A stretch of 42,404 bases of DNA from assembly GCA_965652295.1 (NCBI GenBank), contig CBFGTS010000024.1, positions 1 through 42,404 on the forward strand. The letters run 5' to 3'. The notes under the pieces were generated by a model that saw only the letters and a program-made list of their open reading frames with translations, did not search any database and was not told the origin of the DNA. The DNA comes from an uncultured Haloferula sp. GTDB taxonomy: Bacteria; Verrucomicrobiota; Verrucomicrobiia; Verrucomicrobiales; Akkermansiaceae. How positions within the stretch are numbered: the first letter of the stretch is position 1; every line of letters begins with the position of its first letter. The translations under genes were made by a program, and so were the position numbers. Of the stretch, positions 790-20,204 are shown in pieces.

Positions 790-2058
790 ATGTCCGATTT
801 CGTCGTCACGACGGCGGTCGCTGCGGCCCTGTCTGCCGTGGCCGCTCTCACCCTGCTCGCCCTCCGGCTCCGCCGCGCCCGTCGCGAGTTCGCGGAGCAG
901 GTCAATGCGTGGAAATCCAAGCTGGAGGTCGAGCTGCGCAGCGCCCGGGCCGAGCGCGACAAGATGCTCGATGCCCTCTCGGACGCCTTCCTGCTGGTCG
1001 ACGCCTCGGGAGTCATCCGCATCGCCAACGGCGCGGCGGAACGGTTTTTCAACGGCCGCTCGCTGGTGGGACGCCCGGTCAGCGAGGTCATGCTCGACCG
1101 CAATCTGGCGGCGGCGGTGAACGAGTGCGTGCAGGAGGGAAATCCCATCACCCGGCGCATCCCGCTGCACTACCACCGGTCCCATGGCGATATGCCGCCC
1201 GCGGGCCCCAAGGGCCAGGTCGTGTGGGACCTCGATGCGGCAAGGCTGGGTGGCATGCCCAATCAGGAGGATTTCACCCGTATCGTGATTCGTGACGTGA
1301 GCGTGGAGCACCAGACCGAGCAGATCCGGAAGGACTTCGTCGCGAACGCCTCGCACGAGCTCCGCACCCCCCTTGCGATCATCAATGGCTATCTGGAGAA
1401 CCTGATCGACGACGACCTGCTGGACGATCCCGACATCGCCCGCCGGTTCCTCAAGATCATGCGCAAGCACACCGAGCGGATCGCCCGGATCGTCGAGGAC
1501 ATGCTGGTGATTTCCCGGCTGGAAAGCGGCGAAGCCGCCGCGCTGAAGATCGAGCCCTTCCGGCTGCGGTCGTGCGTTCAGGATGTCCTCGAACGTCTCG
1601 AGTCGATGATCCGCCACCAGAAGGCGGAGATCCATGTGGAAATGGAGGACGAGGACCTCCAGCTCAACGGCGATCGCTTTTACTGGACCCAGGTTCTTTT
1701 CAATCTCATCGAGAACGCCCTGAAGCAGAACCCCCGTTCCGGCCTGCACGTGCACGTGGGTGCCCGGCGCGATGCGGGCGGCTTCACCCTGTGGGTGGCC
1801 GACGATGGCGTGGGCATTCCCGCGCAGGACTTGCAGCACATTTTCCGCCGCTTCTACCGCGTCGAGAAGCACCACTCCCAGGAGGAGATCAAGGGCACCG
1901 GACTCGGGCTCTCGATCGTGAAACGCGCGATCGAGGCGCATGGCGGCACGATCGAGGTCACTTCCGTTCCCGGCGAAGACACCCGCTTCACCATCCGCAT
2001 CCCCGCCCTCGCCGCAGCCGAACTCGCCGCCAGGGTCGATGAGCAGGGTGCGGCGTGA
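790..2058 (+). CDS. phoR: PhoR-like sensor histidine kinase (TM, PAS, HisKA, HATPase)
   Basis: RKDFVANASHELRTPL H-box, NLIENALK N-box, DDGVGI, IFRRFYRV, GTGLGLSIVK; one N-terminal TM and a PAS-like segment. Confidence 0.8.
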   Translation: MSDFVVTTAVAAALSAVAALTLLALRLRRARREFAEQVNAWKSKLEVELRSARAERDKMLDALSDAFLLVDASGVIRIANGAAERFFNGRSLVGRPVSEVMLDRNLAAAVNECVQEGNPITRRIPLHYHRSHGDMPPAGPKGQVVWDLDAARLGGMPNQEDFTRIVIRDVSVEHQTEQIRKDFVANASHELRTPLAIINGYLENLIDDDLLDDPDIARRFLKIMRKHTERIARIVEDMLVISRLESGEAAALKIEPFRLRSCVQDVLERLESMIRHQKAEIHVEMEDEDLQLNGDRFYWTQVLFNLIENALKQNPRSGLHVHVGARRDAGGFTLWVADDGVGIPAQDLQHIFRRFYRVEKHHSQEEIKGTGLGLSIVKRAIEAHGGTIEVTSVPGEDTRFTIRIPALAAAELAARVDEQGAA

Positions 2059-2499: not shown

Positions 2500-3294
2500 T
2501 CAGCGCGCTGCGGTCGCCGGAGCGGTGTTGTTGCGCTCGATCGCGGCGTCGGACTGGGCCTTGAACCACTCGTCGAAGGTGTCGCGGCTGATCACTTCCA
2601 TCTGCCCGGCCATGTTGGCGTGGCCTTCGCCGCAGAGCTGGCCGCAGACGACGGAAGTCTCGAGGTTCCGGGTGGGCGTGAACCACATCGGGATCTCGCG
2701 GCCAGGGATGGCGTCCTGCTGGATGCGCATCGGGACGATCGAGTAGTTGTGGATCACGTCATTGGACCCGATGTTGAGGATCGCGGGGCGGTCCTTCGGC
2801 AAACGCAGCACCGAGGTGGTGAAGTCGTCCTGGGCGTTCGGGTCGGCAAGGTCGATCCCCGGATCGCTCGAGCTGGTCTTGAGGCGGTGGTCGATGCGAC
2901 CGAAGCGGCCGTCGGCGCCGGCGTAGTGATAGGTCCAGCCGAACTGCCAGCCGATCACCCGCACGCGGATCGGGTCGCGCTTTTGCACCTGGGTCCAGGA
3001 ATCACTGCGGTCCTTCCACATCGGGAGCGCGAAGCCGAGGAGCAGCACGGCCTCGAGAATGATGATGCCGATCTCCAGGTGGGTGGAGAGATGGTTGCGG
3101 ACTCCGTGATAGGACGCCTTCGGCTGCACCCCGCGGCGGTAGCGCACGATCGTGAAGAGGAAGAACAGCGTCCAGCCGACGAAGAGGGCGATCATCAGCC
3201 AGTGCACCACATCGATGACGTGGTCCACGCGTCCGCCGTGGGCGGAGAAGCTATCGGGAATGCCGAGGAATTTGGAAGGACTCAGGGAGTTCAT
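2500..3294 (-). CDS. coxB: Cytochrome c oxidase subunit II (CuA), no fused cytochrome c
   Basis: Two TM helices, WQFGW motif, DVIH...CGQLCGEGHANM CuA ligand set. Confidence 0.93.
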   Translation of the reverse strand: MNSLSPSKFLGIPDSFSAHGGRVDHVIDVVHWLMIALFVGWTLFFLFTIVRYRRGVQPKASYHGVRNHLSTHLEIGIIILEAVLLLGFALPMWKDRSDSWTQVQKRDPIRVRVIGWQFGWTYHYAGADGRFGRIDHRLKTSSSDPGIDLADPNAQDDFTTSVLRLPKDRPAILNIGSNDVIHNYSIVPMRIQQDAIPGREIPMWFTPTRNLETSVVCGQLCGEGHANMAGQMEVISRDTFDEWFKAQSDAAIERNNTAPATAAR

Positions 3295-3781: not shown

Positions 3782-4156
3782 TCAGGATTCCGGAGCCGGC
3801 AGCACGGCGGCCGCCTGTCCTCCGTCGGAGAAGCGGTCGTAGTGGATCGGGTCATCCTTGGCCCAGAAGATGAGGAAGACCATGAAGATGGCGAACACGA
3901 TGCCACTGGAGAACAGCCAGTAGACGGCCTTCTTCTCGTGGTTGAGGTGCATGAAAATCGCCGCCACCAGCGACGCCTTGGTCGTGGCGATGAGGAGGCC
4001 GAGGATCATGTCGGCCGAGTCGAAGCCGTGCCTGCCGAAATCGAGGGCGGGCACCGTGGCCACCAGCACCGTCACGATGGTGCCGACGAACAGCGCCGCG
4101 CCGATGATCAGGTAGAGGCGGATGGATTTCTTGATGTCTTCTGCGGTGTCAGCCAT
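3782..4156 (-). CDS. Cytochrome c oxidase subunit IV family protein
   Basis: Three TM helices and the KASLVAAIFMHL motif (CtaF/CyoD-like). Confidence 0.88.
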   Translation of the reverse strand: MADTAEDIKKSIRLYLIIGAALFVGTIVTVLVATVPALDFGRHGFDSADMILGLLIATTKASLVAAIFMHLNHEKKAVYWLFSSGIVFAIFMVFLIFWAKDDPIHYDRFSDGGQAAAVLPAPES

Positions 4157-4174: not shown

Positions 4175-5989
4175 TTACATGAGGTAGAAGATCGGGAACG
4201 CGAAGATCCAGACGAGGTCGACGAAGTGCCAGAACAGGCCGCCGACCTCCACCCGGTTGGCGAGCCACTCGGGATTGGAAAGATACATCTTGCGACCGAA
4301 GAACAGGTAGTAAGCCAGCACGATCGCCCCGCCCACCACGTGCAGACCATGGAGACCGGTGATGGTGAAATAGATGGCGTAGTAGGTGTTCCATTTCGGC
4401 GTGAACTTGGAGTCCATCGCCACTTCCGCCCGCGGGACGGAAATGTGCGGGAATTTGCGGTGGTCGTAATCCGGGCCCTTGAAGTGCTCCGTGAGGGTCA
4501 TCGTCACCCGCGGAGGCGTGAAGGCTCCTTCCTCGATCTGCACTTCCTCCAGCGGCGTGTCCATGTAGTAGGCGATCTCCTGCCAGCCCATCCGGTAGCG
4601 GTCCTTGTGGGTCGGCTCGCGGCCCTTCTCCGCCAGCGCTGCGGCGAGTTGCCCCACGGCCTTCTGATGTTTTTCCCAGAGGTCGGCGATCTCCGGGTTA
4701 TTCTTGATGATCCAGCTGTTCTCGATGGCGACCAACGGATCGATGCCTTTCTCCTCGGCCTTCATGACAAGGTGCTGGAAGTCGATGCCGTCCACGTAGT
4801 GGAAATCCAGCGCCGAATACCCCTGCTCGCCGGCGAGGGTGGTGCCATCCCGCAGGATGATGCTGGTGAGGCCCTCGCGGTAGTCGGTGATGACGTCGTG
4901 GCTTTTGAAGCGGAGCGTGAGCGGCTCGGCTCCGGCAGCGACGTTGAAGGTGGCGGCGGTGGTTTCGGGACGTTCGATCTGGGAGAACTTCTTGGTGTCG
5001 ATGAGCACCGGCACGGTCTCACCGCTGCCCAGCTTGACCGATTCGACGTTCACATCGGTGGCGAAGTTGGCACGCATGCCGGCCTTCCAGCGGACGTAGG
5101 CTTCCTCGCGCTCCTCCGGAGGGAGCTCGGAACCGGCGGGGAACGACGCCACGAACGCGGCCTCACCGAGCAGGTCGTTCTCTTCCACGTCGGCCCACTT
5201 GATTTCCCACGCCTTGCGCAGGTAGTCGGCGCGCATCGTCTGATTGAAGGCGCGGTTCTCGGTCTGGGCGGCGAAGAGCTTCTCCAACAGATCCACACTC
5301 AGCTTTTCTCCCGCGGCGAAAACCTTGGAGGCGTCGGGTGACTCGGCATCCGGCCGGTTGAAGTTCAGGTCATGGGCCAAGGCGATGGTGGCGCCGGCCT
5401 GATCGGCTTCCGCGACGAATGACTGCACCCACGGCTTGTAGGCGCGCAGCAGGTCGAAGGTCATCGTCTCCGGCTGGAAGCGCTGGACGTTCATCTCGAT
5501 TTCCTCGCCCATGGCGTCCACCGCATGCTCGGCGTGGCCGCCTTCTCCGGCATGGTCGTCGTGACCGGCACCGGCGGGCTTTTCGTAATCGATGTGGCCC
5601 TCGATCACCGAGTAGTCCGCCAGACGTGCGGCCTGGTGATGGAACTTCACGCTGTACTCGAGGCCCTTGAAGCCCATGAAGACCAGCGCGCAGAGCACCG
5701 TGATGGCCATGAAGATCTGGAACTGCACCCACTTCCTCATCTTCAGCGAGGCCCACGCGAATACCACCGTGACGGAGGACGCGATCAGGATGAAGGTGTT
5801 CAGCAGGCCCGGCAGCACCGGGAGCGTCCGCTCCGGCCACGGGTAGTCGGCCCCGAGGCGGAGGAAAACGTAGCCTGAGAACAGGCCGCCGAAGAGCATG
5901 ACTTCCGACGCGAGGAACAGCCAGATCGCGATCTTCGAGTTGAAGAGACCGGTGTCCTTGCGCGGGGTGACGACGTAGGGGATTTCCAT
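4175..5989 (-). CDS. coxC: Cytochrome c oxidase subunit III with large internal soluble insertion
   Basis: WLFLASEVMLFGGLF, NTFILIASS, EY in aa 1-112; YFTITGLHGLHV and FWHFVDLVW in aa 534-604; ~415 aa extra in between. Confidence 0.9.
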   Translation of the reverse strand: MEIPYVVTPRKDTGLFNSKIAIWLFLASEVMLFGGLFSGYVFLRLGADYPWPERTLPVLPGLLNTFILIASSVTVVFAWASLKMRKWVQFQIFMAITVLCALVFMGFKGLEYSVKFHHQAARLADYSVIEGHIDYEKPAGAGHDDHAGEGGHAEHAVDAMGEEIEMNVQRFQPETMTFDLLRAYKPWVQSFVAEADQAGATIALAHDLNFNRPDAESPDASKVFAAGEKLSVDLLEKLFAAQTENRAFNQTMRADYLRKAWEIKWADVEENDLLGEAAFVASFPAGSELPPEEREEAYVRWKAGMRANFATDVNVESVKLGSGETVPVLIDTKKFSQIERPETTAATFNVAAGAEPLTLRFKSHDVITDYREGLTSIILRDGTTLAGEQGYSALDFHYVDGIDFQHLVMKAEEKGIDPLVAIENSWIIKNNPEIADLWEKHQKAVGQLAAALAEKGREPTHKDRYRMGWQEIAYYMDTPLEEVQIEEGAFTPPRVTMTLTEHFKGPDYDHRKFPHISVPRAEVAMDSKFTPKWNTYYAIYFTITGLHGLHVVGGAIVLAYYLFFGRKMYLSNPEWLANRVEVGGLFWHFVDLVWIFAFPIFYLM

Positions 5990-6043: not shown

Positions 6044-7921
6044 TCAGTGGGCAGGCGACTCGGCGGGTTTTTCTTCCGGCTGCGGGCTGGTGCGCTTCGG
6101 CGCGATCCACTGTGGCAGGTAGTCCTCGTCGTGATCGGGACGGCTGTATTCGTAGGGCCCGCGGTAGACGACCGGCTCGGTCTCGAAATTCCCGTGGCCC
6201 GGAGGCGTCGGCGTGGCCCACTCGAGCGTGGTGGCATTCCACGGATTGTCGCTGGTGACCTTCTTGCCGAAGAACTTCGACCAAGCGAGGTTGATGAGGA
6301 ACGGAAGCTGGGCGAGCGCCATGGCCCACGCGGCGTAGGACATGAGGATGTTGAGGTCGATGTGCTGGGCAACGGTCGAGCCGAACACGTTCGGGCTGTC
6401 GGGCACCTTGGCCAGATAGGCATCGCCACCATTGTACCAGCGGCGGTGGAAACCGGACATGCCCTGGGTGAGCATCGGGAAGAAGATCAGGTTCATGCAC
6501 ACCAGGCTCGGCCAGAAGTGGAGGTGGCTGAGGAAGGTGCTCATGTGGCGTCCGGTGATTTTCGGATACCAGTGATACACCCCGGCGAAGAGACCGAAGA
6601 GGATCCCGGGAGCGACGACGTAGTGGAAGTGGCCGATGACGTAGTAGGTATCGTGCAGGTGAAGGCCGACGAGATTGAACGCGAGCGGCAAACCGGTCAG
6701 ACCGCCGATACCGAACATCGGCAGGAATGCGCAGGCCCAGATCATGGCCGGAGTGAACCGGATCGATCCCTGCCAGAGTGAAATGATCAGCGAGGTGAGC
6801 AGGATCACCGAGGGGATGGAAACCAGCACCGTGGTGGTCTGGAACCAGGTCGAAACGCCGGGGCCCATGCCGGTCATGTACATGTGGTGAGCCCACACGA
6901 GAAAGGAGAGGAAGCCGAGCACGAGCACGCCGTAGACCATGCCCTTGTAGCCCCACAGCGGCTTGCGGGTGTTGGCCGGAATGATTTCCGCCACGCAGGC
7001 GATGGCCGGAAGGAGAAGCACATACACCTCCGGGTGGCCGAGGAACCAGAACAAGTGCTGGAACAGCAGCGGCGAACCGCCACCGGAGATTTCAAGCAGG
7101 CCTTCCGCCTTGGTCACCAAGCCGGAGGGCATGAAGAAGGAGGAACCGGTCACCCGGTCCATCAACTGCATGATGCCGGCGGCTTCCAGCGGAGGAAAGG
7201 CGAGCAGGAGAAGGAAACCGGTGACCAGCATCGCCCATACGAAGAAGGGCATGCGCATCCAGGTCAGGCCGCGGGCGCGCAGGTTGATGATTGTGGTGAT
7301 GAAGTTGACCGAGCCCAGAAGCGAAGAGGTGATGAGAAGCACCAGGCCGATCAGCCATTGCGTCTGCCCTGCGAGCCATTGGTTGACGATCTGGGCGTCG
7401 GCAATGCCGGCGAGCGGCGAGTAGTTCGTCCAGCCGGACTTGGCGGCTCCGGACTCCATGAAAAACGAGGCGCACATCACCAGGCCACCTGCGAGGTAGA
7501 TCCAGTAGCTCATCATGTTGAGCTTCGGAAACGCCATGTCGGGGGCGCCGATCTGCAATGGGGTCACGTAGTTGCCGAAGGCCCCGAAGCCGAGCGGCAC
7601 GACACCGAGGAACACCATGATCGTGCCGTGCATGGCACCGAACATGTTGTAGGTCTCACCCGTCACCTTGCCATCCTGCAGCCAGCGGGATTTCCAGGTA
7701 TCGGAGAACATCCAGCTCATCCACTCCGGCAGCGGCTCGTGCGGGAAGGCGATGCTCCAGCGCATCACCATCATCAGGAAAAAGCCGAAGAGCAGGAAGA
7801 GCCCGGCGGTGATTCCATACTGGAGGCCGATCATCTTGTGATCGGTGGAAAAAAGGTATTTCCGGACGAAACCCGGGTCGTGGTGATCGTGATGATCGTG
7901 TGCGTCAGCGTGGGCGCTCAT
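6044..7921 (-). CDS. coxA: Cytochrome c oxidase subunit I, A1 type
   Basis: STDHK, HGTIMVF, PDMAFP, FWFLGHPEVY, WAHHM, HDTYYVIGHFHY, RR pair; all six His ligands present. Confidence 0.97.
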   Translation of the reverse strand: MSAHADAHDHHDHHDPGFVRKYLFSTDHKMIGLQYGITAGLFLLFGFFLMMVMRWSIAFPHEPLPEWMSWMFSDTWKSRWLQDGKVTGETYNMFGAMHGTIMVFLGVVPLGFGAFGNYVTPLQIGAPDMAFPKLNMMSYWIYLAGGLVMCASFFMESGAAKSGWTNYSPLAGIADAQIVNQWLAGQTQWLIGLVLLITSSLLGSVNFITTIINLRARGLTWMRMPFFVWAMLVTGFLLLLAFPPLEAAGIMQLMDRVTGSSFFMPSGLVTKAEGLLEISGGGSPLLFQHLFWFLGHPEVYVLLLPAIACVAEIIPANTRKPLWGYKGMVYGVLVLGFLSFLVWAHHMYMTGMGPGVSTWFQTTTVLVSIPSVILLTSLIISLWQGSIRFTPAMIWACAFLPMFGIGGLTGLPLAFNLVGLHLHDTYYVIGHFHYVVAPGILFGLFAGVYHWYPKITGRHMSTFLSHLHFWPSLVCMNLIFFPMLTQGMSGFHRRWYNGGDAYLAKVPDSPNVFGSTVAQHIDLNILMSYAAWAMALAQLPFLINLAWSKFFGKKVTSDNPWNATTLEWATPTPPGHGNFETEPVVYRGPYEYSRPDHDEDYLPQWIAPKRTSPQPEEKPAESPAH

Positions 7922-8049: not shown

Positions 8050-8802
8050 TTATTCTTCCACGGGTGAGAGGGATACGGGATCGACCTTGGTGGTGGGGTC
8101 GAGGGGCTCGCCGGGCAGTTCCTCCATGTGGTCGGCCTGCAATTCCTGCTGGTCGAGTGGAGTACCCGGAGCCGACCGGGCTTCGGAGATTTCAAGCGCC
8201 TTGGCGGCCATTTCCGTCGTGACGATCCCGCCGGCATCATTACCGAACGAGTTGCGGACGTAGGTCATCACCGAAGCGAGATCGGTCGCGCTCATGCCGA
8301 CCCCTTGGGCGGGCATCACACCGAAGGTCTTGCCGGTGCTGGTCGGACCGGTGAGGCCATTGAGAACGATCATCGCGAAGCGTTCGGTCGGGCCCATCAC
8401 CCATTCCGAACCCGCGAGCGAGGGGTAGGCTCCCCCACCCTTGCCGTCGGGAGCGTGACAGCCGACGCACTTCGAGTAAACCTTCTCTCCCTTCGCCATG
8501 TAGGCCTTGAGGGCATCGACGGGCGGCGGACCGGAATCCTCGCCGCTGTCGAGAGCTTTGCGGGTGTAGTCGGGTGCGACGATCTGGTTGTAGTCGAACA
8601 TCCCGCCGGCCTGGCCGAGGACGAGGCCCGCCGCGATGGCGACCACCCCGCCGGTGGCGAAAATCCAGTTGGAAACCGGTTCGCGTCCACCATCGTCCAC
8701 GCGCTTTTCGCGGGCCACGGCAGCGGCATCGCGCAGGAGGCGGTCGTGGGACTCGGTGACGTTCAGCGAATCGTCGAGATCGGGCTTGTGAGGATCTTGC
8801 AT
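8050..8802 (-). CDS. Membrane-anchored monoheme cytochrome c
   Basis: One TM, CVGCH, PSLAGSEWV, VMPAQG (Met ligand), VMTYVRNSFGN. Confidence 0.9.
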   Translation of the reverse strand: MQDPHKPDLDDSLNVTESHDRLLRDAAAVAREKRVDDGGREPVSNWIFATGGVVAIAAGLVLGQAGGMFDYNQIVAPDYTRKALDSGEDSGPPPVDALKAYMAKGEKVYSKCVGCHAPDGKGGGAYPSLAGSEWVMGPTERFAMIVLNGLTGPTSTGKTFGVMPAQGVGMSATDLASVMTYVRNSFGNDAGGIVTTEMAAKALEISEARSAPGTPLDQQELQADHMEELPGEPLDPTTKVDPVSLSPVEE

Positions 8803-8821: not shown

Positions 8822-9526
8822 TCAGCCTTCGGGGTTGGTGGGCGCCGGAGCGTAGTTCATCGAGGCCGGCACGGTGTCGTCGTGCTGGAGGGAAAGGAGA
8901 TAACTGGCAAGCGCGCGGGCTTGCTGGCCGGGCACGATTTCGATGCCCTCTTCGGTTGCCACGTCGATAGCGGCATCAGAAGGCGGACCGTGGCGCTCGC
9001 GCTTCTCGAAGAGGAACGGCAGCGACGGGCAGTTGGTCCAGGCGGCGACCTCGGGGTCGAGCCGTGGATTGTAGAGGCGGAGGTAAAGGTAGTCTTCCGC
9101 ATCCGCACCGTGGTCACGCAGCAGCCGGCGACCGTAGTTCATCAGGTCCGGGCCGGTCCTCGTCACGCCGATCGGGGCGAAGTCGAGGCCGACGTAGTCG
9201 AAGGGGTTCGACTCGCGGCGGGTGTCGCCCCGCTCCGGGTCGTCACTGAGACCGGCGAAGTCCGGGCGACCGAGGTCGTTGCCGGCGGTGGTCGGGCGGA
9301 TGACCTGGGTGTGGCAGAGGTAGCAGCCGTTCTCGGCGTAGACTTCGTAGCCGTTGACCACGCGGCCGGCGGTCTTCGGGTGATAGATCCCGGTCTGGGT
9401 GTCGATGCCCTCCTGGAATGCGACCGGGGAAAGGGCGCGCATTTTGAAGAAGGGGACGACCACCACGGCAAGCCAGGCGAGGCCGAAGCTGGCGGTGAGT
9501 CCGATGGCGAAAGTGCGGAAGTTCAT
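8822..9526 (-). CDS. CcoO/FixO-like monoheme cytochrome (cbb3 subunit II homologue), atypical
   Basis: N-terminal TM, GYEVYAENGCYLCHTQVIRP, RTGPDL, LYNPR; the SxMP motif reads TNCP. Confidence 0.85.
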   Translation of the reverse strand: MNFRTFAIGLTASFGLAWLAVVVVPFFKMRALSPVAFQEGIDTQTGIYHPKTAGRVVNGYEVYAENGCYLCHTQVIRPTTAGNDLGRPDFAGLSDDPERGDTRRESNPFDYVGLDFAPIGVTRTGPDLMNYGRRLLRDHGADAEDYLYLRLYNPRLDPEVAAWTNCPSLPFLFEKRERHGPPSDAAIDVATEEGIEIVPGQQARALASYLLSLQHDDTVPASMNYAPAPTNPEG

Positions 9527-9548: not shown

Positions 9549-11027
9549 TCAGTGGACGATGGGACCGGTGTTGTCGATGTCGCCTTCCGGCCCGTGCGGG
9601 CTCTCGGCGTGGCCGTGGACCAGCAGGGTCGGATGCGAGCTGCGGCGGCCGAGGCGCAGCCACATCAGCGTGAGGTGCATGAAGAAGAAGAAGTTCGAGA
9701 CCAGCAGGAAGCACCAGGCGATCGTGTTGAACACGGCGTAGTTCTGGCTGCGGTCGGCCGCGTCCTCCCAGCCGGTCAACATCGCCTCCTGGCCGACTCC
9801 CTGCATCAGGCCGCCGAACAGCGTGATCACCGCGATGCCGCCCGCTCCGTAGATCGAGAGGAAGAAGTGCGAGGTGATGAGGCGGCGGGAAAGCCACTCG
9901 CGGCGGGTGATGCGCGGGACGATGAAGTAGATCGCACCGAAGGCGATGAAGCTGAAGAAGCCGTAAACGCCGAGGACCTCGTATCCGTATCCGGAAATGG
10001 TGAATTGCGTGAGTTTCAGCACCCCGGGGAGATTGAGGAAGACGCTGGCGAGGGCGAAAACGAGCAGGAAGATCAAGCCCCAGACGGTGAAACGCAGGGT
10101 CGGGCTGGTGTTGACCGTTTCCAGATCGGTGGCGGCCGTCTTGAGCAAGTTGATGCCGGCGACGGCGGCGGGGATGGCGAAGAGAACCGTCGCGAAGGCC
10201 CCGAGGTAGGGCAGGAAGTTCGGCAGCGGCACCCCGGCAAGGGTTTGCAGGCCGGCCCACGGAGCGATGATCGCCAGCGACCAGAAGCCAATCATCGAAA
10301 GCGAGTAGTTGTAGACCGGACGACCAAGCACCTTGGGCACCAGGTAGTAGGCCATGCCGATGCCGATCGGGGCGAAGAGCATCAGCAGCATGGCGGAGCG
10401 GAACCAGGCGTTCACGCCGGTGGCTCCGAGCGGGCTGCCATCGAAGCCGTGGATCAGCAGGTTCGACGAGGCGAAGAACCACGGGAACCAGATCAGCGCG
10501 GCCATCAGGTACCACTGGGAAACATAGGTGTGACCCTCCGGGCGGACTTTGAACTGGACCATCGAACCGATGACGATCGCGATGTAGGCGAGGAGCATCG
10601 GGAACCAGGCGAACGAAGGCATTTCCATCCATGGCATCCCGGTGCCGCCACCGGCGAGGATGGCGATGACGCCGAGCGAAAGTGCGAAGTTCCAGACGTG
10701 GCCGGCGGTGAGGATCGTTCCGGGGTTGCGGCAGGTCTGGCGGGAAAGCCGGGCCATCAGCCAGATCACCATCCCGAAGGCCGCCTGGCAGCCCCAGCCG
10801 TAGATGAAGGCGGTCTGGTGAGCGGCGAACACGCGGCCGTAGGTCAGCCAGGCACATTGGTCGAGGAAGCCGGGGCTGTGGACCTTGGCGGAGGAGACGA
10901 TGCCGAGCAGGATCGCCACCGCCAGCCAGGCCGCGCCGCTGGTGAAGAAGAACATCACCGGATGGCGGAGCGATCGGTCGATCGACGCGCGCAGGATCGT
11001 GTCTTGGTCGTTTTCGAGGGAGGCCAT
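9549..11027 (-). CDS. CcoN/FixN-like polytopic membrane protein lacking active-site ligands (pseudo-oxidase)
   Basis: CcoN framework motifs LTYGR..H, YVSQWY, YYLVPK...PVYNY, WAG, P.LRF, YFIVPR, HF are present; CuB and heme b3 histidines are absent. Confidence 0.85.
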   Translation of the reverse strand: MASLENDQDTILRASIDRSLRHPVMFFFTSGAAWLAVAILLGIVSSAKVHSPGFLDQCAWLTYGRVFAAHQTAFIYGWGCQAAFGMVIWLMARLSRQTCRNPGTILTAGHVWNFALSLGVIAILAGGGTGMPWMEMPSFAWFPMLLAYIAIVIGSMVQFKVRPEGHTYVSQWYLMAALIWFPWFFASSNLLIHGFDGSPLGATGVNAWFRSAMLLMLFAPIGIGMAYYLVPKVLGRPVYNYSLSMIGFWSLAIIAPWAGLQTLAGVPLPNFLPYLGAFATVLFAIPAAVAGINLLKTAATDLETVNTSPTLRFTVWGLIFLLVFALASVFLNLPGVLKLTQFTISGYGYEVLGVYGFFSFIAFGAIYFIVPRITRREWLSRRLITSHFFLSIYGAGGIAVITLFGGLMQGVGQEAMLTGWEDAADRSQNYAVFNTIAWCFLLVSNFFFFMHLTLMWLRLGRRSSHPTLLVHGHAESPHGPEGDIDNTGPIVH

Positions 11028-11037
11028 GGCAGGAAAA

Positions 11038-11847
11038 TCAGGGAGCGACGGGGATCAGGTCGGCTTGCTTGAGCATCGGCTTGCCGACCTCGGAGCGGAG
11101 CATTTTGACCTGCTCGGGGAGCACGGGCGGAGCGGAGTTCCCGAAGGAATTGCGGATGTAGGTGAGCACGGCGGCGACGTCTTCATCGCTGCTGGCGGCA
11201 CCCATGGGTGCCATCGGTGCGGGAAGAGTGTATTCCTTGCCGGAAACGGTGATCGGGCCTTCGAGGCCGCGCATCTGGATGCGGATCAGGTTGGAGACCG
11301 GGCCGGTGACCCAGTCGGAACCGGCGAGCGGCGGAGCGATGACCGGGTTGCCCTCGCCGTTCTGCCCGTGGCAGGCGGCGCACAGCAGGTAGGCCGTTTT
11401 GCCTTTCTCCATCACGGCCGGGTCTGGAGCAGTGCCCGCGGCGGGAGTCAGTTGATCCACCGCACCTGCGTCGGCTTCCGGAGACTCGGCCAGTTTCTCA
11501 GCCGTCGGAGATCCGGGAACGACCTGGGCGGCGTCGGTCGAAGCGGTCGGTTTGGAGGCGACGAGTTGCTTCCCGACGAGGCCGAACACGGCCTCCGGAT
11601 GAGCTTTCACCGTCGTCTTGTCTTCGGACACCGTCCACGCGTGGAGATTGGCCTTCTGGGATTCCTCCACCTGGGCGCGGACCTTCAGGCGGTTGAGCCG
11701 GGCGGTTTCCTCAAGCGAATTGCGAGCCTCCCCGCCACCAGCCACCAGGCGGGTGATGAAGAGCACCACGAAGAAGAGCAGGATGACGCCGATCCCCCAC
11801 CAGAAGGCGGTGAAGCGGGCCATGGGATTGTCACGGGATGGATCCAT
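11038..11847 (-). CDS. ActG-like N-terminus fused to a monoheme cytochrome c
   Basis: Follows actF; TM plus LHAWTVSEDKTTVKAHPEAVFGLV segment; C-terminal CAACH, APPLAGSDWV, PMAPM, LTYIRNSFGN. Cytochrome c is certain, ActG homology is tentative. Confidence 0.75.
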   Translation of the reverse strand: MDPSRDNPMARFTAFWWGIGVILLFFVVLFITRLVAGGGEARNSLEETARLNRLKVRAQVEESQKANLHAWTVSEDKTTVKAHPEAVFGLVGKQLVASKPTASTDAAQVVPGSPTAEKLAESPEADAGAVDQLTPAAGTAPDPAVMEKGKTAYLLCAACHGQNGEGNPVIAPPLAGSDWVTGPVSNLIRIQMRGLEGPITVSGKEYTLPAPMAPMGAASSDEDVAAVLTYIRNSFGNSAPPVLPEQVKMLRSEVGKPMLKQADLIPVAP

Positions 11848-11895: not shown

Positions 11896-13233
11896 TCAAT
11901 TCGAGACGTTCGCGGACTCGAGGATGCGGGGATCCTGGTTGGGGTAGAGGTTGTTCTGGCCGAGGGCGCGCAAGTAGAAGAAGACGAAGCCGGAGCCAAC
12001 CGTGATGAAGGCGAGGATGTCGCCCCAGAACGCACCGGGGACGGTGGTCGTCACGTGGCCGAACTGCTCCGGAAGGAGATTCATCAGCGAGACCGAGCGC
12101 TCGGGAATGGCGATCAGGTAATGATCGAGGAAGTGCATCGCCAGCGTGTAGACGGCCATGGCGGCGAGAGCCATCGGCTTCTTTTTCAGCCAGGCTTGCA
12201 GCAGGATCACGAAGGGGACGACGAAGTGGAGGAAGACCAGAGCGATCATGCCGGTGTTCCAGCCGCCGGTGTTGCGGATCAGGAAATAGCGGGTCTCCTC
12301 GGTGATGTTCGCATACCAGATGAGGAAATACTGGGAGAACGCGATGTAGGCCCAGAAGATGGTGAAAGCGAGGAGCAGCTTGCCCTTGATGTGGTAGTGC
12401 TCCGGCGTGACGACCTTCTTCATGTAGCCCGCCCGCTGGAGCAGCGCACAGGTGATGATGATCACGGCCATCGAGTTCAGCGCGGAACCGGCGAAGAGAT
12501 ACACCCCCCACATGGTCGAGAACCAGGTGTAGTCGAGGCCCATCAACCAGTCGAAGCCGGCGAAGGTGATGGTGATCGCGAAAATGATCAACGTGTAGGT
12601 CGAGTGGAAGCGGGCGCGGAACAGGCGGCTGGTGCCGGGGTTCGGATCGCTGTCCTGCTCGACGGAGAGCTTCCGCAGACCGCGGATGACGAGGCTGAGA
12701 CCGACGAAGTAGAAGACGAAGCGGACGTACCAGAACGGGATGCTCATGTACCAGTACTTGAGATACATGAGGTGGTGGTGCGGATCGTGGCTGTGGTGGA
12801 GCGCATCCTTCGCGCCCACGCCGAAGGTGGAACCGGAAAGCTCGCGGTGGGTGTTCATCCACTCGTAGAGCCATTTTTGCACCGCCGGGCAGGCCAGCGG
12901 CGCGGCGAAAATAAACATCCAGGGATACACCGAACCGAGGTTCTCCATGACGCGGCGGACCGAGGTCCCCCACCCCGAGTTGGAGACGTTGTGAAGCAGG
13001 GTCCAGAAGCAGCCACCGACGGCCAGGGTGAAGAAGAAGAACACCGCGAACAGCCAGGAATAGGAGTAGGTGGCGGCCCAGCCTTCATTCGGGCCGAAGA
13101 GCAGGAAGAAGCTGACCAGCGTGAGCACCGCCGAGGTGCCACCGGCGATCAGCTTGATCTTCGGAATGATCGGGCTGCTGAGTCGCTCGCCTTGGGCGGG
13201 GACGTCCGCGGAAGTGACGTAGTGGGAAGCCAT
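11896..13233 (-). CDS. actF: Alternative complex III subunit ActF
   Basis: Polytopic NrfD-like protein: FDWLMGLDYTWFSTMWG, FWAYIAFSQYFLIWYANITEET; position in the act operon. Confidence 0.9.
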   Translation of the reverse strand: MASHYVTSADVPAQGERLSSPIIPKIKLIAGGTSAVLTLVSFFLLFGPNEGWAATYSYSWLFAVFFFFTLAVGGCFWTLLHNVSNSGWGTSVRRVMENLGSVYPWMFIFAAPLACPAVQKWLYEWMNTHRELSGSTFGVGAKDALHHSHDPHHHLMYLKYWYMSIPFWYVRFVFYFVGLSLVIRGLRKLSVEQDSDPNPGTSRLFRARFHSTYTLIIFAITITFAGFDWLMGLDYTWFSTMWGVYLFAGSALNSMAVIIITCALLQRAGYMKKVVTPEHYHIKGKLLLAFTIFWAYIAFSQYFLIWYANITEETRYFLIRNTGGWNTGMIALVFLHFVVPFVILLQAWLKKKPMALAAMAVYTLAMHFLDHYLIAIPERSVSLMNLLPEQFGHVTTTVPGAFWGDILAFITVGSGFVFFYLRALGQNNLYPNQDPRILESANVSN

Positions 13234-13252: not shown

Positions 13253-13954
13253 TTACTGGGCCGGGTTGGCTGAGGCTTGAGCCGCGTCGTAGGCGGCCTT
13301 GACGGCAGGATCGGACAGCGGCGCCTTCTGGGCGGCCTGGAGGGCGCGGACGTAGGCGATCACCGCCCAGCGGTCGCGCAGCGAAAGGTTGTGCTTGTAG
13401 GAACCCATGTTGCCTTTGCCGTGGGTGATCACGTCGAACATCCGTCCGTCCGGATACGCGGCGGGGCCGAAATTCTCGAGCGTCAGGTTGGCGACACCGG
13501 GGACACCGTATTGCGCGGCCATGCCTTGGCCGTCGCCGGAAGCGCCGTGGCATGGCATGCAGTTGACGAGATACATCTCGTGGCCGCGGCGGAGGAAGGC
13601 ATCGACGTTCTCCTCGGTGAGCTCCAGTTCCTCCGGCATGCCGCTGGAGTAGTGGTCGTTGATGACACCGGTGGCGTAGTAGCCGGTGCCTCCGCCGAAC
13701 TGATACTCGGGGATGCCGCCGAGTTCCGTCTGGCCGCTTTCGAGGAAGCCCCGGGGATGGGTGCCATCGACCGGCTGACGGGCACCGACGCCATCGGCGA
13801 AGAAAGCGTCCGGCTTCTGGGCCTTGAGCTTGTCCTGGTTGTCCATGTCCGGGAGCAGCCAGATCGGTGTGTCGGCGCGCTTTTCACCCCGCATCGGCAT
13901 GAGACCGATGAAGAGCGCGGCGATGATCGCGTAAGCGAGGAAGAAGTATTTCAC
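13253..13954 (-). CDS. actE: Alternative complex III monoheme subunit ActE
   Basis: PDMDNQ.K.K.Q, RG.EMY.VNCMPCHG..GDGQG, ITHGKGNM, DRWAVIAYVRALQ; GTG start. Confidence 0.9.
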   Translation of the reverse strand: MKYFFLAYAIIAALFIGLMPMRGEKRADTPIWLLPDMDNQDKLKAQKPDAFFADGVGARQPVDGTHPRGFLESGQTELGGIPEYQFGGGTGYYATGVINDHYSSGMPEELELTEENVDAFLRRGHEMYLVNCMPCHGASGDGQGMAAQYGVPGVANLTLENFGPAAYPDGRMFDVITHGKGNMGSYKHNLSLRDRWAVIAYVRALQAAQKAPLSDPAVKAAYDAAQASANPAQ

Positions 13955-13976: not shown

Positions 13977-14531
13977 TTAGTCCTCTTCTTCGACGAGTTC
14001 GATGTTGGTGCCGCCGATGTCCTGGAGGAGGTTCCGGGTGCCTTCGGGGCTGAACTTCGGATCGCGGGCTTCGATGGCGATGAAGAAGGCGTCGTCGGTG
14101 GCGCGGTGGAACTGCTTGCTGGCGAACAGCGGGTGGTTCAGGCGTGGCAGCTTCATCAGCGCAAGCAGGCCGAAGAGCACGGTGAAACCGGAGAACAGGA
14201 TGGTCAGCTCGAACATCACCGGGAAGAAGGCCGGCACGGTGAAGATGTTGGTCGGCTTGGCCTGGACGACGGTCGGGTAGATCAGGACCTGGGTGCCGTA
14301 GGCGAGGCAGAAAGCGGTGAGGGTGCCGGTTGCGCCACCGAAGAACACCAGCCAGGGCAGGACGGAGCGCTTGAGGCCCATCGCGCCATCGAGGCCGTGG
14401 ATCGGATAGGGCGAGTGGCAGTCCCACTTGCGGAAACCGGCATCGCGCACCTTTTCCGCGGCCTTGTAGAGGGCGGAGGCGCTTTTGAATTCGGCCAGGT
14501 AGCCGTAAACGCGTTTACGAGTCGTGCTCAC
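13977..14531 (-). CDS. actD: Alternative complex III subunit ActD (DUF3341)
   Basis: LAEF, HSPYPIHGLD.AMG, FFPVMFELTILF, DDAFFIAIEA.DP. Confidence 0.92.
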   Translation of the reverse strand: MSTTRKRVYGYLAEFKSASALYKAAEKVRDAGFRKWDCHSPYPIHGLDGAMGLKRSVLPWLVFFGGATGTLTAFCLAYGTQVLIYPTVVQAKPTNIFTVPAFFPVMFELTILFSGFTVLFGLLALMKLPRLNHPLFASKQFHRATDDAFFIAIEARDPKFSPEGTRNLLQDIGGTNIELVEEED

Positions 14532-14568: not shown

Positions 14569-16047
14569 TCAGATCGACGGCGACTTGTCGCGCAGTTCGT
14601 ATTGATAGGCGGCCTGATCCGTGACGCCCTCGTCGGGATGATCCTTGAGGTCGTCGAAGTGCGGATCGGACTCCGGCAGCGTCCACTTCACTTCCGCAAT
14701 GTTGATGCAGGGCAGGAAACGGAGGAACAGCAGGAACAAGGTGAGGAACATCCCGATGGTGCCGACGAACAGGAGCTGGTCCTGGCCGCTCGGGGAGAAG
14801 TATTTCCAATCGCCCGGCAGCCACATGCGAGAGAGCGTGGTGACGATGATGACGAAGCGTTCGAACCACATGCCGCAGTTCACGCACATCGCCACGGCCA
14901 TCACGACCCAGAGGTTCTCCCGGCATTTCTTGAACCAGAAGATCTGCGGCGAGAGGACGTTGAGGCCCATCATCCAGAAGTAGGCCCAGTTGAAGGGACC
15001 GGCGATCCGGTATTTGAAGGCTTCCATCTCGAACTTCGCGCCGGAGTAGAAGGCGACGAAGAGCTCCATCAGGTAGGCGTAGCCGACGATGGTGCCGGTC
15101 AGCAGGATGATCTTCGCCATGTTGTCGATGTGCTTCATCGTGATCAGATCCTGCAGGCCGTAGATGAAACGGGCGGGAACCATGATGGTGAGCACCATCG
15201 CAAAGCCACCGAAGATGGCGCCGGCGACGAAGTAGGGCGGGAAAATCGTGGTGTGCCAGCCGGGGACGACCGAGGTGGCGAAGTCGAAGGAAACGACCGA
15301 GTGCACCGAGAGCACCAGCGGGGTCGAAAGCGCGGCCAGAAGGAGGTAGGCCATTTCATAGTGGCTCCACTGGCGGTTGCCGCCGCGCCAGCCGAGCGAG
15401 AACAGGCCGTAGAGGAACTTGCGCAGGCCGGGCTTGCAGCGATCGCGGATGGTCGCGAGGTCCGGAACCATGCCGAGATACCAGAAAATCAGCGAGACGG
15501 TGAAATAGGTCGAGACCGCGAACACGTCCCACAGCAACGGCGATTTGAAGTTTTGCCAGATGCCGTTGGCATTGGGAACCGGGGCAAGGAACCAGACCAT
15601 CCAGACGCGGCCAACGTGGAAGGCGGGGAAGATCCCCGCGCACATCACGGCGAAGATCGTCATGGCCTCCGCGGCACGGTTGATCGAGGTCCGCCAGTTC
15701 TGACGGGTCAGGAAAAGGATGGCCGAAATCAGCGTTCCGGCGTGGCCGATGCCGATCCAGAACACGAAGTTCACGATCGGCCAGCCCCACATCACGCGGT
15801 TGGTGTTTCCCCAGACCCCGACACCGGTCGAAACCAGGTGGAAGAGGCCGAAGCCGACGCCGATGGCGGCGATGAGGGCGCTCGGAATGAAGAGCAGCCA
15901 CCACAAGCCGGGCTGGCGGTTTTCGAGGACGCCGCAGATCCGCTCGGTGATCCAGTGATAGGAGCGGTCGTTGAGGATCAGCTTCTCGCGCTTGAGCACG
16001 GGAAGCTTCGGACCTTGGCGTTGGGAGGTTTCAGTGGCGGTGGCCAT
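14569..16047 (-). CDS. actC: Alternative complex III subunit ActC (NrfD family, quinol-oxidising)
   Basis: [64 protein letters not shown]. Confidence 0.96.
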
Positions 16048-16086: not shown

Positions 16087-19000
16087 TCAGTGCATGTGAA
16101 TGGTCGCTTTCCCGATGAACCGGGCACCGGGCATCGAGGGATTCGGATTCTTGACGCGGGCCAGATAGCTGGTGCGCGGGCGGGTTCCGATGTATTGGAG
16201 CAGATCGTAGTTCCGGGCGACGTCCTTGGCGCGCATCACGGTGGCCTTCTGCTCGTCGAGCTTGTTGCCGAAGGTGATGGCACCGGCCGAGCAGGCGTCC
16301 TGGCAGGCGACCTTGACGGAATCGACCGGGATGCGGAGTTCCGCGGTGCCGACGCTGACGGCCAGCGAGTTGCCGGTGGCGAGCGTTTCCTGCTTCTGGC
16401 GGCGCTTCTGACGGATCTTGGCGTCCTTGAGGCGCTGCACGCAGTAGGTGCACTTTTCCATCACGCCGCGCATGCGGACGGTGACGTTCGGATTGCGCTG
16501 GAGGTGGGCGGCGGTGCCGACCTGCTTTTCACCCAACGGACCGCGGTAGAGGTTGTGGGCGATGAGCGGGTTGCGCTTGTTGTAGTCGAAGAAGTTGAAA
16601 CGACGGGCCTTGTAGGGGCAGTTGTTCGCGCAATAGCGGGTGCCGATGCAGCGGTTGTAGGCCATCGCGTTGAGGCCGTCCTCAGTGTGAACGGTGGCAT
16701 TCACCGGGCAGACGGTTTCGCACGGCGCGGACTCGCACTGCACGCAGGCAACCGGCTGCGGGATCATCTCCAGGTTGTCGCCGGATTCGTCGCCGTCCTG
16801 GGAGGCGAAATACCGGTCCATCCGGATCCAGTGCATCTCGCGGCCCTTGGCGAGCTGCTCCTTGCCGACGATCGGGATGTTGTTCTCCGCCTGGCAGGCG
16901 ATGAGGCAGGCGTTGCACCCGGTGCAGCTGCTGAGATCGATCGCCATCGCCCACTGGTGAAGCGGGTCGTTGATGAGCGGCTGGCCCTGACGGTCCTCCT
17001 GCTTGTAGAGCGAGATGTTCGGCGGAGCGTGGGAGTCCATGCCCTGCTTCTTCACACCGGCGAGCTGGTGGGCGAAGTCGCCCTTCACGTCATCGGCCGC
17101 CGTGGAAACCTCCCGGGCAATCGCGCGGCCATACATGGAGTGATGCTCCTGGGTGGCGGCGAGGCTGTATTTCCGGCCGGTCTTGGTCGGAGTTCCTTCG
17201 AGAACCGCGAAGTAGGGAGTCGCGCTGGTGCGGGCGGGATAGACGTTGAAACCGGTATTCACACCGACGAGGCCGACGTGGGCTTCGTTGCCGGTGTCGC
17301 GGCCGAGTTCGTCGTCGGCATTGCAGCCCTGGCCGTAGCCGAGAGGAACGTAGACCACGCCATCGGCGAGCCCGAAGGCGATCTGCACCGGCAGCTCAAG
17401 TTCGACGCCGTTGACCTTGATGGAAATCATCTTGGCCTTGAGGTTCTCCCCTTCCCCATCCGGCGGCACCGCGGCGGTCGGGGTCTGGATCTTCACCAGC
17501 TCGTCGTAGAGATCGTATTGCTTGGCCGTCGCGGGCGAAACGAAGGCGGCGTTGTCCCACGACAGCTTCGAGAGGGGGTCCGGGGCTTCCTGGAGCCAGC
17601 CGTTGTCGATCCAGCGACCATCGTAAACCGAATAGTCGGTGGCGAAGATGATCTCAAGGTCGCCGCCGGCGGGCGCGGCATCGATCGCGGCGGTCAGCGC
17701 GGCGGCATCGGAGGAAACGGTCGCGGTGGGATAGCTCGATCCGGCGAGGAAACCCTCACGCAGCAGGGTTTTCCAAGCCTCTTCGGTTTCGCCTGCCAGG
17801 GCGGAGAAGGTCTTGCGGACCGCGGCCATCGCCGGGCTGGCTCCGCCTTCCTCGCCTTCTCCGGTGAGAAGACGGCCTTCGCCATCGAGCAGCGCGGAGA
17901 GCACCTCGAGCTCGCTCGCGCAGTCGGGGTAGAGCGGCAGGATCATCGGCTGGACGATCGTGTAGACGCCGGTGGCGCTGCGGGCATCGCTCCAGCTTTC
18001 GAGGTAGTGGCTGGCCGGCACGTGCCAGGTGGTGGCGTGCGCGGTGGCGTCGGTGCGGAGACCGAAATGGATGCTGGTCTCGGCATTCGCCAGCGCCTCG
18101 TTGAACCCGAGGTCGGCCGGGGCGTCGTAAGCAGGATTCGAGGGCGTGAAGAACAGGACGTGCTCGACGGCGCCGGAGTTGAGGTCGGCGACGAGCTCGG
18201 CCAGACCGCCGAGGCCGGTGTTGCCAGTCACCACGGCGCGCAGCGGGGCGTCCTCACCGATCGCCCCGATACGGAGATTGATCGCGGCGGCGATGCGATG
18301 GACGGCTTCCGGCGCGCGGCTGCCGACGACCACCATCGAACGTCCGCGGTTCGCCTGCAGGTCCTTGGCCAGTTCCGCGACCCAATCGGAAATGCGGGCA
18401 TCGGCGGCAGGTGCGTTTCCAACGGAGCCACTATCGCCGAGGGCGCGGAGGATTTCCGCGGCCGCCGTGACGAGCTGGCTCGGCTTCACGCGCAAGCGGT
18501 GATCCGCCATGCCGCCGGTGAGCGAGAAAGCGCTTTCGACGGCGTAGAGCCGGTTCATGCGCGAGGAATCCGGAGCCTGATCGTAGCCTCCACCCTCGGG
18601 CTTGCGGCGGTCGTAGAACGCGCGGACCGGACCGACGGAGTCGAGTTCGGTGAAATCGCAGTCGAGCGAAACGATGCGGTCGGCCTTGGTAAAATCGGCC
18701 ACGAAACGCACACCGTCGCCGAACAGGCCGTCGGCTTCGCCTTCAAGCGCCTCGTAGGCGTAGGCCCTGAGGCCGGAGAACTTCGCCTGCAAGTCCTTCA
18801 GGAGACGGCTGCGGGTGGGCGAGTCATCGCGACCGAAAACCACGCCGACTTTCGCCGCGGGATCGTTGGCGATTCCGGCGAGCACGCCCTCGAACTCACC
18901 GCGGGTGGCGGGCTTTCCGTGGTGCAGCACCTGGCGCGAGCGGCTGGGAGAATACAGATCGAGCACCGAGGCCTGGGCGAAGGCGTCGGTGCCGGCACCC

Positions 19001-19407
19001 TCGGGGTGCAGCTCGTTCGGGCCGACCCGGGTCGGGCGGCCTTCGTAGGTGGTCACCACCAGCGGGGTGGCACCGCCGGAGCGGGGAAAACTGGAAGCGT
19101 AGTAGGTCGCCTTGCCCGGAATGACCCACTCGGGCGCGTTGGCGTAGGGCAGGATGTAGCTTTCCGGGCGGCGGCAGGCGGCCATGCCGAAACCGGCGAG
19201 GGCGGTCGAGGCGCCCATGAGTTTGAGGAACGACCGGCGGGATGTCTCCATCTCCTCCTGGTTCTCCATCTCCGCGGCGCCGCGGGGAAACTCGCGCTCG
19301 AGCCACTCGCGGAACTCGGCCGTGTTCTCAAGCTGCCCGACACCGCGCCAGGAGACGGTGGTTTCGTCCGCGGGAACGTCGGGGTGTTGCCAGATGCGTT
19401 TGCTCAT
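16087..19407 (-). CDS. actB: Alternative complex III subunit ActB (molybdopterin-oxidoreductase-like plus Fe-S domain)
   Basis: Tat motif SRRSFLK followed by AAC; C-terminal [42 protein letters not shown]. Confidence 0.96.
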
Positions 19408-20143: not shown

Positions 20144-20182
20144 GACGGTGGTGAAATCGTTTCTCGTCGAGAAAATCAGAGA

Positions 20183-20204
20183 GCTTGTGAAATTTTTCAC
20201 AAGC
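20183..20204. promoter_or_regulatory. Palindromic operator matching the Rex consensus (TTGTGAA-N4-TTCACAA); also fits CRP-family TGTGA-N6-TCACA
   Basis: GCTTGTGAAATTTTTCACAAGC, an AT-rich palindrome in GC-rich DNA, 40-61 nt upstream of the actA ATG. Confidence 0.8.

Follow-up and report, generated by a model that had tools for sequence, protein, structure and literature searches.

The DNA considered here, referred to as the window, is a stretch of 42,404 nucleotides from an uncultured Haloferula sp. (assembly GCA_965652295.1, contig CBFGTS010000024.1), and by its Pfam and NCBIfam matches it carries one long respiratory gene cluster on the minus strand. Within that cluster, coxA encodes subunit I of an A1-type haem-copper oxidase in which leucine stands at the position of the K-channel lysine, and coxB encodes a subunit II that carries a second buried glutamate, Glu81, in its second transmembrane helix (TM2). 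The K-channel lysine is treated as a defining residue of A-family oxidases. An earlier note, made from the letters of the window, had drawn attention to its absence from CoxA and offered three ways in which the enzyme might manage: an alternative proton route, a D-channel-only mechanism, or help from a partner subunit. The comparisons below use two samples, namely a close set made up of the window CoxA and the best 120 of 8000 scored homologues (67-91% identity), and a locus scan, with one genome per species, which listed 80 loci among at least 600 matching stretches; the window together with the 28 scanned loci that lack the lysine and group with it is called the clade (29 rows). Residues of Rhodobacter sphaeroides and Paracoccus denitrificans are marked Rs and Pd. 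The features on which the argument turns are these.

6044..7921, minus strand: coxA, subunit I of an A1-type haem-copper oxidase, 625 aa (Pfam COX1 and PDB matches)
7538..7540, minus strand: Asp128, intact, at the entrance of the D-channel (Rs D132; D in 120 proteins of the close set, a gap in the other)
7022..7036, minus strand: His296-Pro-Glu298-Val-Tyr300, with the CuB His, the D-channel Glu and the cross-link Tyr, intact
6989..6991, minus strand: Ala311, at the lower K-channel Ser position (Rs S299 / Pd S291), by alignment
6818..6820, minus strand: Ser368 (Rs A356), one turn above Ser371, with a hydroxyl specific to the clade (S throughout the close set of 121)
6809..6811, minus strand: Ser371, equivalent of the upper K-channel Thr (Rs T359), hydroxyl kept (S in all 121 close proteins; clade rows 28 of 29)
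6800..6802, minus strand: Leu374, codon CTG, at the K-channel Lys position (Rs K362 / Pd K354 / bovine K319)
6794..6796, minus strand: Thr376 (Rs F364), with a hydroxyl specific to the clade, on helix VIII two residues below the lost Lys and on a different face
2500..3294, minus strand: coxB, 264 aa, a subunit II that has a CuA site and lacks a cytochrome c domain (Pfam COX2)
3073..3075, minus strand: CoxB Glu74, the K-channel entrance Glu (Rs E101(II) / Pd E78 / bovine E62)
3052..3054, minus strand: CoxB Glu81, buried in TM2, seven residues above Glu74, in place of the Pro of WTxxP

CoxA lies well above the cut-off of Pfam COX1 (E-value 1.7e-125; score 419.8, cut-off 34.8) and under that of NCBIfam TIGR02891, CtaD_CoxA (541.8, cut-off 670.75). 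Its best phmmer matches among PDB chains are the subunits I of R. sphaeroides (1m56_A, E-value 1.9e-106) and P. denitrificans (1ar1_A, E-value 2e-106), with which it aligns free of gaps from helix VI through helix VIII. The six histidines (98, 296, 345, 346, 431 and 433) match the R. sphaeroides ligands, two for the low-spin haem, one for the high-spin haem and three for CuB. The D-channel is complete as well, with Rs D132, N121, N139 and E286 represented by Asp128, Asn117, Asn135 and Glu298 (Pd Asp124, Asn113, Asn131 and Glu278; PMC3084760 Table 2). The GHPEVY motif is kept, with Glu298 and Tyr300 (Rs Y288) each present in 121 of 121 proteins of the close set, and its Glu marks the A1 type as opposed to A2. 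Residue-by-residue alignment thus bears out what had been read from the sequence, that the D-channel residues, the cross-link Tyr and all six His are intact. Because the redox ligands and D-channel residues are conserved in 119-121 of the 121, the protein is consistent with a functional enzyme, and CoxA is probably a working A1-type subunit I. By homology and phylogeny it is an A-family member as judged from its sequence, even though it fails the textbook K-channel definition; the intact D-channel and the A-family identity of its best PDB matches place it outside family B. The closest named relatives of CoxA and CoxB are Haloferula, Luteolibacter and other Verrucomicrobiales, with 88% identity to Haloferula entries among the matches listed, and cultured aerobes named among the CoxA homologues include Haloferula, Luteolibacter, Rubritalea and Persicirhabdus.

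The A-type K-channel has been described as consisting of Lys354, Thr351, Ser291 and Tyr280 (Sousa et al., 2011; PMC3084760). In the window these positions read Leu374, Ser371, Ala311 and Tyr300, so that two of the four are lost and one is conservatively changed. The earlier assignment of the Lys position to Leu374 (codon 6800-6802), and of the helix VIII Thr to Ser, is confirmed by the phmmer alignment, which pairs CoxA "sipsvill" with "avptgiki" and is free of gaps here, and by a check of the codons (CTG for Leu374); positions 6785-6835 encode residues 363-379, TTVLVSIPSVILLTSLI, and no alignment puts a Lys at the position. Two further equivalents are Glu312 for Rs H300 and Ser377 for Rs S365. 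Across the close set, the Lys column holds Leu in 95 proteins, Ile in 26 and Lys in none, and the surrounding signature is nearly invariant (Ser368, Ser371 and Val372 in all 121; Thr376 in 119, with Ser in the other 2).

The locus scan places this state in a wider frame. Lys is absent from 28 of the listed loci that resemble the window (L001-L027 and L047; 52-87% identity) and present in 50; one further locus, L043 from Planctomycetota, has Leu at the Lys position and sits on a separate long branch, and L028, which ends before helix VIII, was left out of the Lys counts. At Rs 362 the 29 clade rows carry Ile (22), Leu (6) or Val (1), whereas all 50 more distant loci carry Lys. The neighbouring columns divide along the same line. 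Rs 299 is Ser in 50/50 Lys-bearing loci but A in 19, G in 4, T in 2, C in 2 and other residues in 2 of the 29 clade rows; Rs 356 is S in 29/29 Lys-less rows versus A (41) or G (9); Rs 360 is V in 29/29 versus A (49) or G (1); and Rs 364 is T (22) or S (7) versus F in 50/50. Rs 365, which is N in 50/50 Lys-bearing loci, is A, S, C or T in the Lys-less ones, and Rs 366 is L, M or F in place of W or Y. As judged from these columns, the lower K path of the Lys-less clade is remodelled as a block, with the position-359 hydroxyl and the Tyr retained.

In a FastTree phylogeny built from 80 CoxA rows, the window groups with the 28 loci on a single branch (Shimodaira-Hasegawa-like support 100, stem length 0.43), and a minimum of two Lys losses is needed on the tree as a whole. 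As the records are labelled, the clade spans Verrucomicrobiota, Acidobacteriota (Vicinamibacteria and Thermoanaerobaculia), Neomarinimicrobiota and Hydrogenedentota. The tree shows, within this sample of sequences, a single origin for the rebuilt lower K-channel, in an old multi-phylum clade. Gene order follows the same division: nearly all Lys-less loci in which the genes were detected have coxA-coxC-coxD-coxB, while Lys-bearing loci have coxB-coxA-coxC, in Bacteroidota directly after alternative complex III (ACIII); L021 and L027 have a coxB match upstream of coxA, unlike the other Lys-less loci. Three labels conflict with tree placement. L013 ("Bifidobacteriaceae") falls among Acidobacteriota, L021 ("Enterobacteriaceae") deep in the Lys-less clade and L062 ("Chitinophaga") among Planctomycetota, and these are probably mis-binned or mislabelled contigs of metagenome-assembled genomes.

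An exhaustive HMMER search, from which the 150 best cluster representatives were compared at the Lys position, indicates how other lineages manage. Lys was found in 85, no Lys in 49 and a gap in 16, and 19 of the 49 carry the helix VIII signature of the present clade. Among the other Lys-less representatives, eight have Glu or Asp on helix VIII (P0133, P0178, P0209, P0213, P0239, P0240, P0249 and P0252), at Rs 360 in six, 361 in one and 362 in one; another eight have Gln at Rs 362 (P0193, P0202, P0227, P0230, P0251 and P0254-P0256), and one, P0235, has His there. These look like several natural replacements for Lys, and because Lys-less lineages so often carry one on helix VIII, it is suggested that the position usually needs a polar or protonatable stand-in. 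Rs 360 and Thr376 of the present clade (Rs 364) lie one turn apart on the same face of helix VIII.

Within CoxA itself no such stand-in came to light. A compensator in cis was rejected, as no Lys, Arg or His specific to the clade falls in a hydrophobic segment. The basic residue with which helix VII begins, Lys/Arg326, was set aside because it is also common in Lys-bearing relatives (R in 21 and K in 15 of 50), and Glu312, at the Rs H300 position, is no novelty, Glu being usual there family-wide (PMC8239418 table; 33 of 50 Lys-bearing rows). A scan of CoxA and CoxB for clade-specific ionisable residues in hydrophobic segments returned only CoxA Glu246, CoxB His31 and CoxB Glu81. Glu246 (7184-7186, minus strand) is buried in the upper half of helix V (Rs A247), outside the K region; it is E in 121/121 close homologues, 27/29 clade rows and 0/50 Lys-bearing rows, and the adjoining Pro244 is clade-specific too. 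His31 (3202-3204, minus strand) lies in the first transmembrane helix of CoxB near its periplasmic end and is H in 23/25 clade rows, as against Leu, Met or Phe in the Lys-bearing ones. On the sequence evidence, the sole stand-in candidate of the present clade is in the partner subunit.

That candidate is Glu81. CoxB was aligned to the Paracoccus and R. sphaeroides subunits II, its "hleig" pairing with "pleia" and so fixing Glu74 as the entrance Glu. The usual subunit II motif is LExxWTxxP, and in the clade Glu81 takes the place of its Pro: the position is E in 25/25 clade rows, while among 49 Lys-bearing rows it is P in 40, T in 8, V in 1 and Glu in none. The spacing E-x6-E is found in 120/120 close CoxB homologues (110 by pattern, 10 by eye). 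The entrance position is E in 49/49 Lys-bearing rows but less constant in the clade (E 20, D 1, A 2, V 1 and P 1; n=25), and the four rows in which it is not acidic (L017, L021, L022 and L027; Ala in two, Val in one and Pro in one) all keep Glu81. Since Glu74 is lost in 4/25 clade rows and Glu81 in none, constraint appears to have shifted toward Glu81. No other ionisable residue of CoxA or CoxB has so hydrophobic a flank. The CuA ligands of CoxB are His182, Cys217, Cys221, His225 and Met228, in the motif H-x34-C-x-Q-x-C-x3-H-x2-M, with Gln where Glu is usual. This Gln219 (2638-2640, minus strand), giving C-x-Q-x-C for C-x-E-x-C, recurs in 120/120 homologues and in all readable clade loci, L024 being garbled at the motif. 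In canonical enzymes this loop Glu is in addition a ligand of the Mg/Mn site.

Over seven residues an alpha-helix rises by about 10.5 Å and comes back to nearly the same face. TM2 of subunit II has been described as one of the helices around the K-channel (PMC6115622), as lying at the interface that forms the channel entrance (PMC9335260), and as bordering, together with helices VII and VIII, a cavity at that entrance (PMC10095113; PMC9961948). In simulations of the R. sphaeroides enzyme, E101(II) was placed at about -13 to -12 Å on the channel axis, S365 at about -7 Å and the point "just below K362" at about -2 Å (PMC9687966). Taking these positions together with the rise above the entrance Glu, Glu81 would come to about the height of the lost Lys, and it is predicted to face the channel there from the TM2 side on which E101 lies. 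It is also relevant that carboxylate amphiphiles bound in the entrance cavity are described as rescuing the activity of E101(II) mutants, which indicates that a carboxylate in the cavity can serve the channel (PMC10095113).

The reading favoured here, with a probability of roughly 0.45, is that the K-channel of this enzyme has been rebuilt and that its protonatable group is supplied in trans by CoxB Glu81. The substrate protons for the reductive half of the cycle would still enter through the K region, passing from CoxB Glu74/His72 to CoxB Glu81, then by way of water and Thr376 to Ser371 and on to Tyr300. Glu81 would thereby provide in trans the mid-membrane protonatable group that Lys provides in cis elsewhere, and the rebuilt channel would serve the two reductive steps that are assigned to the K-channel in model enzymes (PMC7196763). 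The top of the channel is retained, as Tyr300 and Ser371, and the new polar groups are Ser368, Thr/Ser376 and CoxB Glu81, introduced as Lys gave way to Leu, Ile or Val, the Ser299 equivalent mostly to Ala, and the Asn/Ser365 equivalent to Ala, Ser or Cys. Proton transfer through Glu81 is presumed from the sequence comparisons. A broader statement, that in a widespread A1 clade the central protonatable group of the K-channel has passed from a subunit I Lys to a subunit II Glu, is offered more tentatively still. Of the three options in the earlier note, help from a partner subunit is the best supported, with the amendment that the partner would be CoxB, through Glu81, and not the ccoN-like gene of the cluster; the choice among the three is one that we infer.

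Several points weigh against this reading. The change from Pro to Glu in TM2 may itself alter the path of the helix, and the role of Glu81 could be structural, lipid-facing or ion-binding. Because the loss of Lys, the gain of Glu81 and the change of gene order share one branch, their association amounts to one evolutionary event and could be a coincidence of lineage. In the Lys-less locus L043, CoxB carries the usual Pro and helix VIII is free of acidic residues, and therefore a stand-in is not obligatory. The orientation and distance assigned to Glu81 derive from helix periodicity and from the geometry of another enzyme. Finally, literature searches, which left subscription journals largely uncovered, returned no biochemical data on any member of the clade.

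A Lys-free K analogue of hydroxyls and water, resembling that of family B, is an unlikely competitor. Protons would then enter at Glu74/His72 and reach Ser371 and Tyr300 by way of water, the mid-channel having no ionisable group, and Glu81 would be structural or would merely widen and hydrate the cavity. Families B and C are described as running alternative K-channels of Thr, Ser and Tyr (PMC3084760 Table 2), and suitable hydroxyls are present in the clade (Ser368 in 29/29 rows, Ser371 in 28/29 and Thr/Ser376 in 29/29). The former Lys, Ser299 and Ser365 positions, however, are now hydrophobic or small, which would leave the canonical path dried instead of lined by hydroxyls, and packing alone hardly accounts for an invariant Glu where the flank is the most hydrophobic in the complex.

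Given about as little weight is an enzyme with a closed K route, in which the D-channel would carry every proton, whether substrate or pumped, possibly with slower reduction of the binuclear centre. The conservation of Asp128, Asn117, Asn135 and Glu298 in 119-121 of 121 would suit such an enzyme, as would the hydrophobic lower K path (Leu/Ile374 and Ala311). Against this, the polar residues of the K region are under purifying selection (Ser371 and Thr/Ser376 in 121/121, Glu81 in 120/120), and in model enzymes the D-channel is described as not standing in for the K-channel in the reductive steps (PMC7196763; PMC6115622).

A third route, improbable on present evidence, would be of "KC type" and run along helix VII through protic residues at the positions of the cbb3 channel (Pd G304, M308, A311 and G319). 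An A1 clade of Elusimicrobia, Ca. Calescamantes and Methylacidiphilaceae has been classed in this way, as "no K, KC", and its Elusimicrobia row (S291A, K354I, T351S, S357C and E at 292) matches the K-position pattern of the present clade, namely A, I, S, C and E (PMC8239418). In the window, though, the KC positions read Gly324, Met328, Gly331 and Ser339, of which only one in four is protic. Ser at 331 and at 339 is common in Lys-bearing relatives too (35/50 and 19/50), and for this reason the KC residues do not mark the Lys-less clade and are not distinctive in it.

The last suggestion that involves other proteins concerns the genes that lie between ACIII and coxA. The remainder of the cluster reads as follows.

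19442-20284, minus strand: ActA, alternative complex III
16087-19407, minus strand: ActB, alternative complex III
14569-16047, minus strand: ActC, alternative complex III
13977-14531, minus strand: ActD, alternative complex III
13253-13954, minus strand: ActE, alternative complex III
11896-13233, minus strand: putative ActF, 445 aa, so named because it follows ActE and is conserved next to ACIII genes in other loci; no Pfam or NCBIfam family match
11038-11847, minus strand: cytochrome c
9549-11027, minus strand: CcoN-like gene
8822-9526, minus strand: FixO-like monohaem cytochrome c, CxxCH kept
8050-8802, minus strand: second cytochrome c
4175..5989, minus strand: coxC, subunit III, 604 aa, with an insert of about 400 aa between two COX3-like parts
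3782..4156, minus strand: coxD, small subunit IV (COX4_pro; Pfam, NCBIfam)

It is very improbable that the CcoN-like and FixO-like proteins help CoxA as extra subunits. Both do sit between ACIII and coxA in the window and in 9/28 Lys-less loci, but they are absent beside the other 19 Lys-less loci (some with short flanks), they are present beside the Lys-bearing CoxA of L058, and no contact with the K region is known for them. The proposal that loss of Lys tracks with the ccoN-like gene does not hold, as the gene adjoins 9/28 Lys-less loci, all in Verrucomicrobiota, and 1/50 Lys-bearing loci (L058), a distribution which indicates that it follows verrucomicrobial ACIII clusters and not the loss of Lys. 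Compared with the solved CcoN 9g6b_A, the window protein keeps the helix II His but has lost five of the six canonical His positions, the three CuB ligands being replaced by Ala, Gln and Thr, the haem b3 ligand by Tyr and the second haem b ligand by Val. By these substitutions the CcoN-like protein of the window lineage cannot be expected to bind a binuclear centre in the usual way. The gene was compared in 11 loci (L001-L005, L007, L011, L018, L020, L028 and L058); those nearest the window share the losses, while L020 and L058 have His at 5/6 columns, so that the decay is lineage-specific. A review terms the gene next to verrucomicrobial (methanotroph) ACIII a cbb3-type oxidase (PMC8498564).

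That the missing Lys might stem from faulty sequencing or assembly, from a lesion peculiar to one strain or from decay of the gene is scarcely credible: the orthologues likewise do not retain it (121/121 close homologues and 29/29 clade rows, from independent assemblies), the coxA open reading frame (ORF) is intact with all ligands conserved, and no support for such an origin was found in these data.

Two other parts of the locus deserve mention. The COX3-like parts of CoxC are its first ~115 residues (NCBIfam QoxC, 19-113) and its last ~80 (Pfam COX3, 525-602), and the insert between them is soluble, begins with an acidic, His-rich stretch, and has no Pfam match and no usable ESM Atlas match. 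Long forms of CoxC (463-549 aa) occur in L001, L002, L005, L007 and L018 and intermediate forms (257-387 aa) in L006, L008, L010, L011 and L026, most other clade members having about 196 aa. Just beyond coxB, on the opposite strand, lies a PAS-domain histidine kinase (790-2058, plus strand), and a 403-aa minus-strand ORF that overlaps it and has no family match is probably a shadow ORF.

The wider interest of these observations lies in a large and environmentally common clade of soil and marine bacteria that dispenses with the K-channel Lys and keeps everything else, and that is not confined to acidophiles, in which loss of the Lys has mostly been noted. If the carboxylate does act in trans, the positive charge of Lys would not be essential for reduction of the binuclear centre in an otherwise canonical proton pump that bears a D-channel. 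Since cultured aerobes are among the homologues, an enzyme that naturally has no Lys could then be used for a direct test of the long-argued question of "proton conductor versus dielectric well". If Glu81 is the substitute, the clade would amount to a natural experiment on the role of Lys and a second solution for feeding the oxygen-reducing site, and there would be reason to include subunit II in the classification of oxidases by their channels. If it is not, the finding shrinks to one more member of a tabulated class.

That class is already well populated. Replacement of the Lys is described as crippling in model enzymes (PMC6115622, PMC7196763), and yet family A has been reported to have lost the K-channel repeatedly (Degli Esposti et al., 2021; PMC8239418). 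Dozens of A-family COX1 without Lys, with I, L, V, F, M, A or T standing in for K354 and with Y280 unchanged, are listed in that study (Supplementary Table S1 and the Fig. S7 table) under the classes "KC-channel", "hybrid" and "modified". Because Lys loss in an A1 enzyme is tabulated there, including an A1 clade, it is not new in itself, and the novelty implied for it by the earlier note was overstated. The same tables are without Verrucomicrobiales, Vicinamibacteria and Neomarinimicrobiota, the present clade being likened to their entries by residue pattern, and for COX2 they score the entrance Glu only and not the position seven residues further in. They were also all that surfaced in searches, with subscription journals largely uncovered, for a second subunit II Glu or for the channel of this clade. 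As far as those searches reach, the conserved buried second Glu of subunit II appears to be an undescribed candidate for managing without Lys.

With the canonical aa3 enzymes (1m56 and 1ar1) the window oxidase shares its fold and length class, the six His, the cross-link Tyr, the D-channel, a CuA subunit II and the entrance Glu of that subunit. It differs from them in subunit I by Leu for Lys362, Ala for Ser299, Thr for Phe364 and Ser for Ala356, in subunit II by Glu for the TM2 Pro and Gln for the CuA-loop Glu, and in the gene order coxA-C-D-B; subunit III is of a short type in most of the clade (~196 aa) and has the large insert in the window. The ba3 enzymes of family B resemble it in having no Lys and in using hydroxyls and the cross-link Tyr as the route of their K analogue (PMC3084760). 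They differ in that B-family enzymes are without the D-channel that the window CoxA possesses, and their route residues lie at other positions. The entrance of the ba3 K analogue is likewise a Glu of subunit II. In E. coli cytochrome bo3, Ma and colleagues reportedly found in 1999 that Glu89, in TM2 of subunit II, is required for the K-channel and lies at a position unlike that in aa3. That enzyme keeps its Lys, and its subunit II Glu is regarded as the entrance residue as opposed to a second, deeper one.

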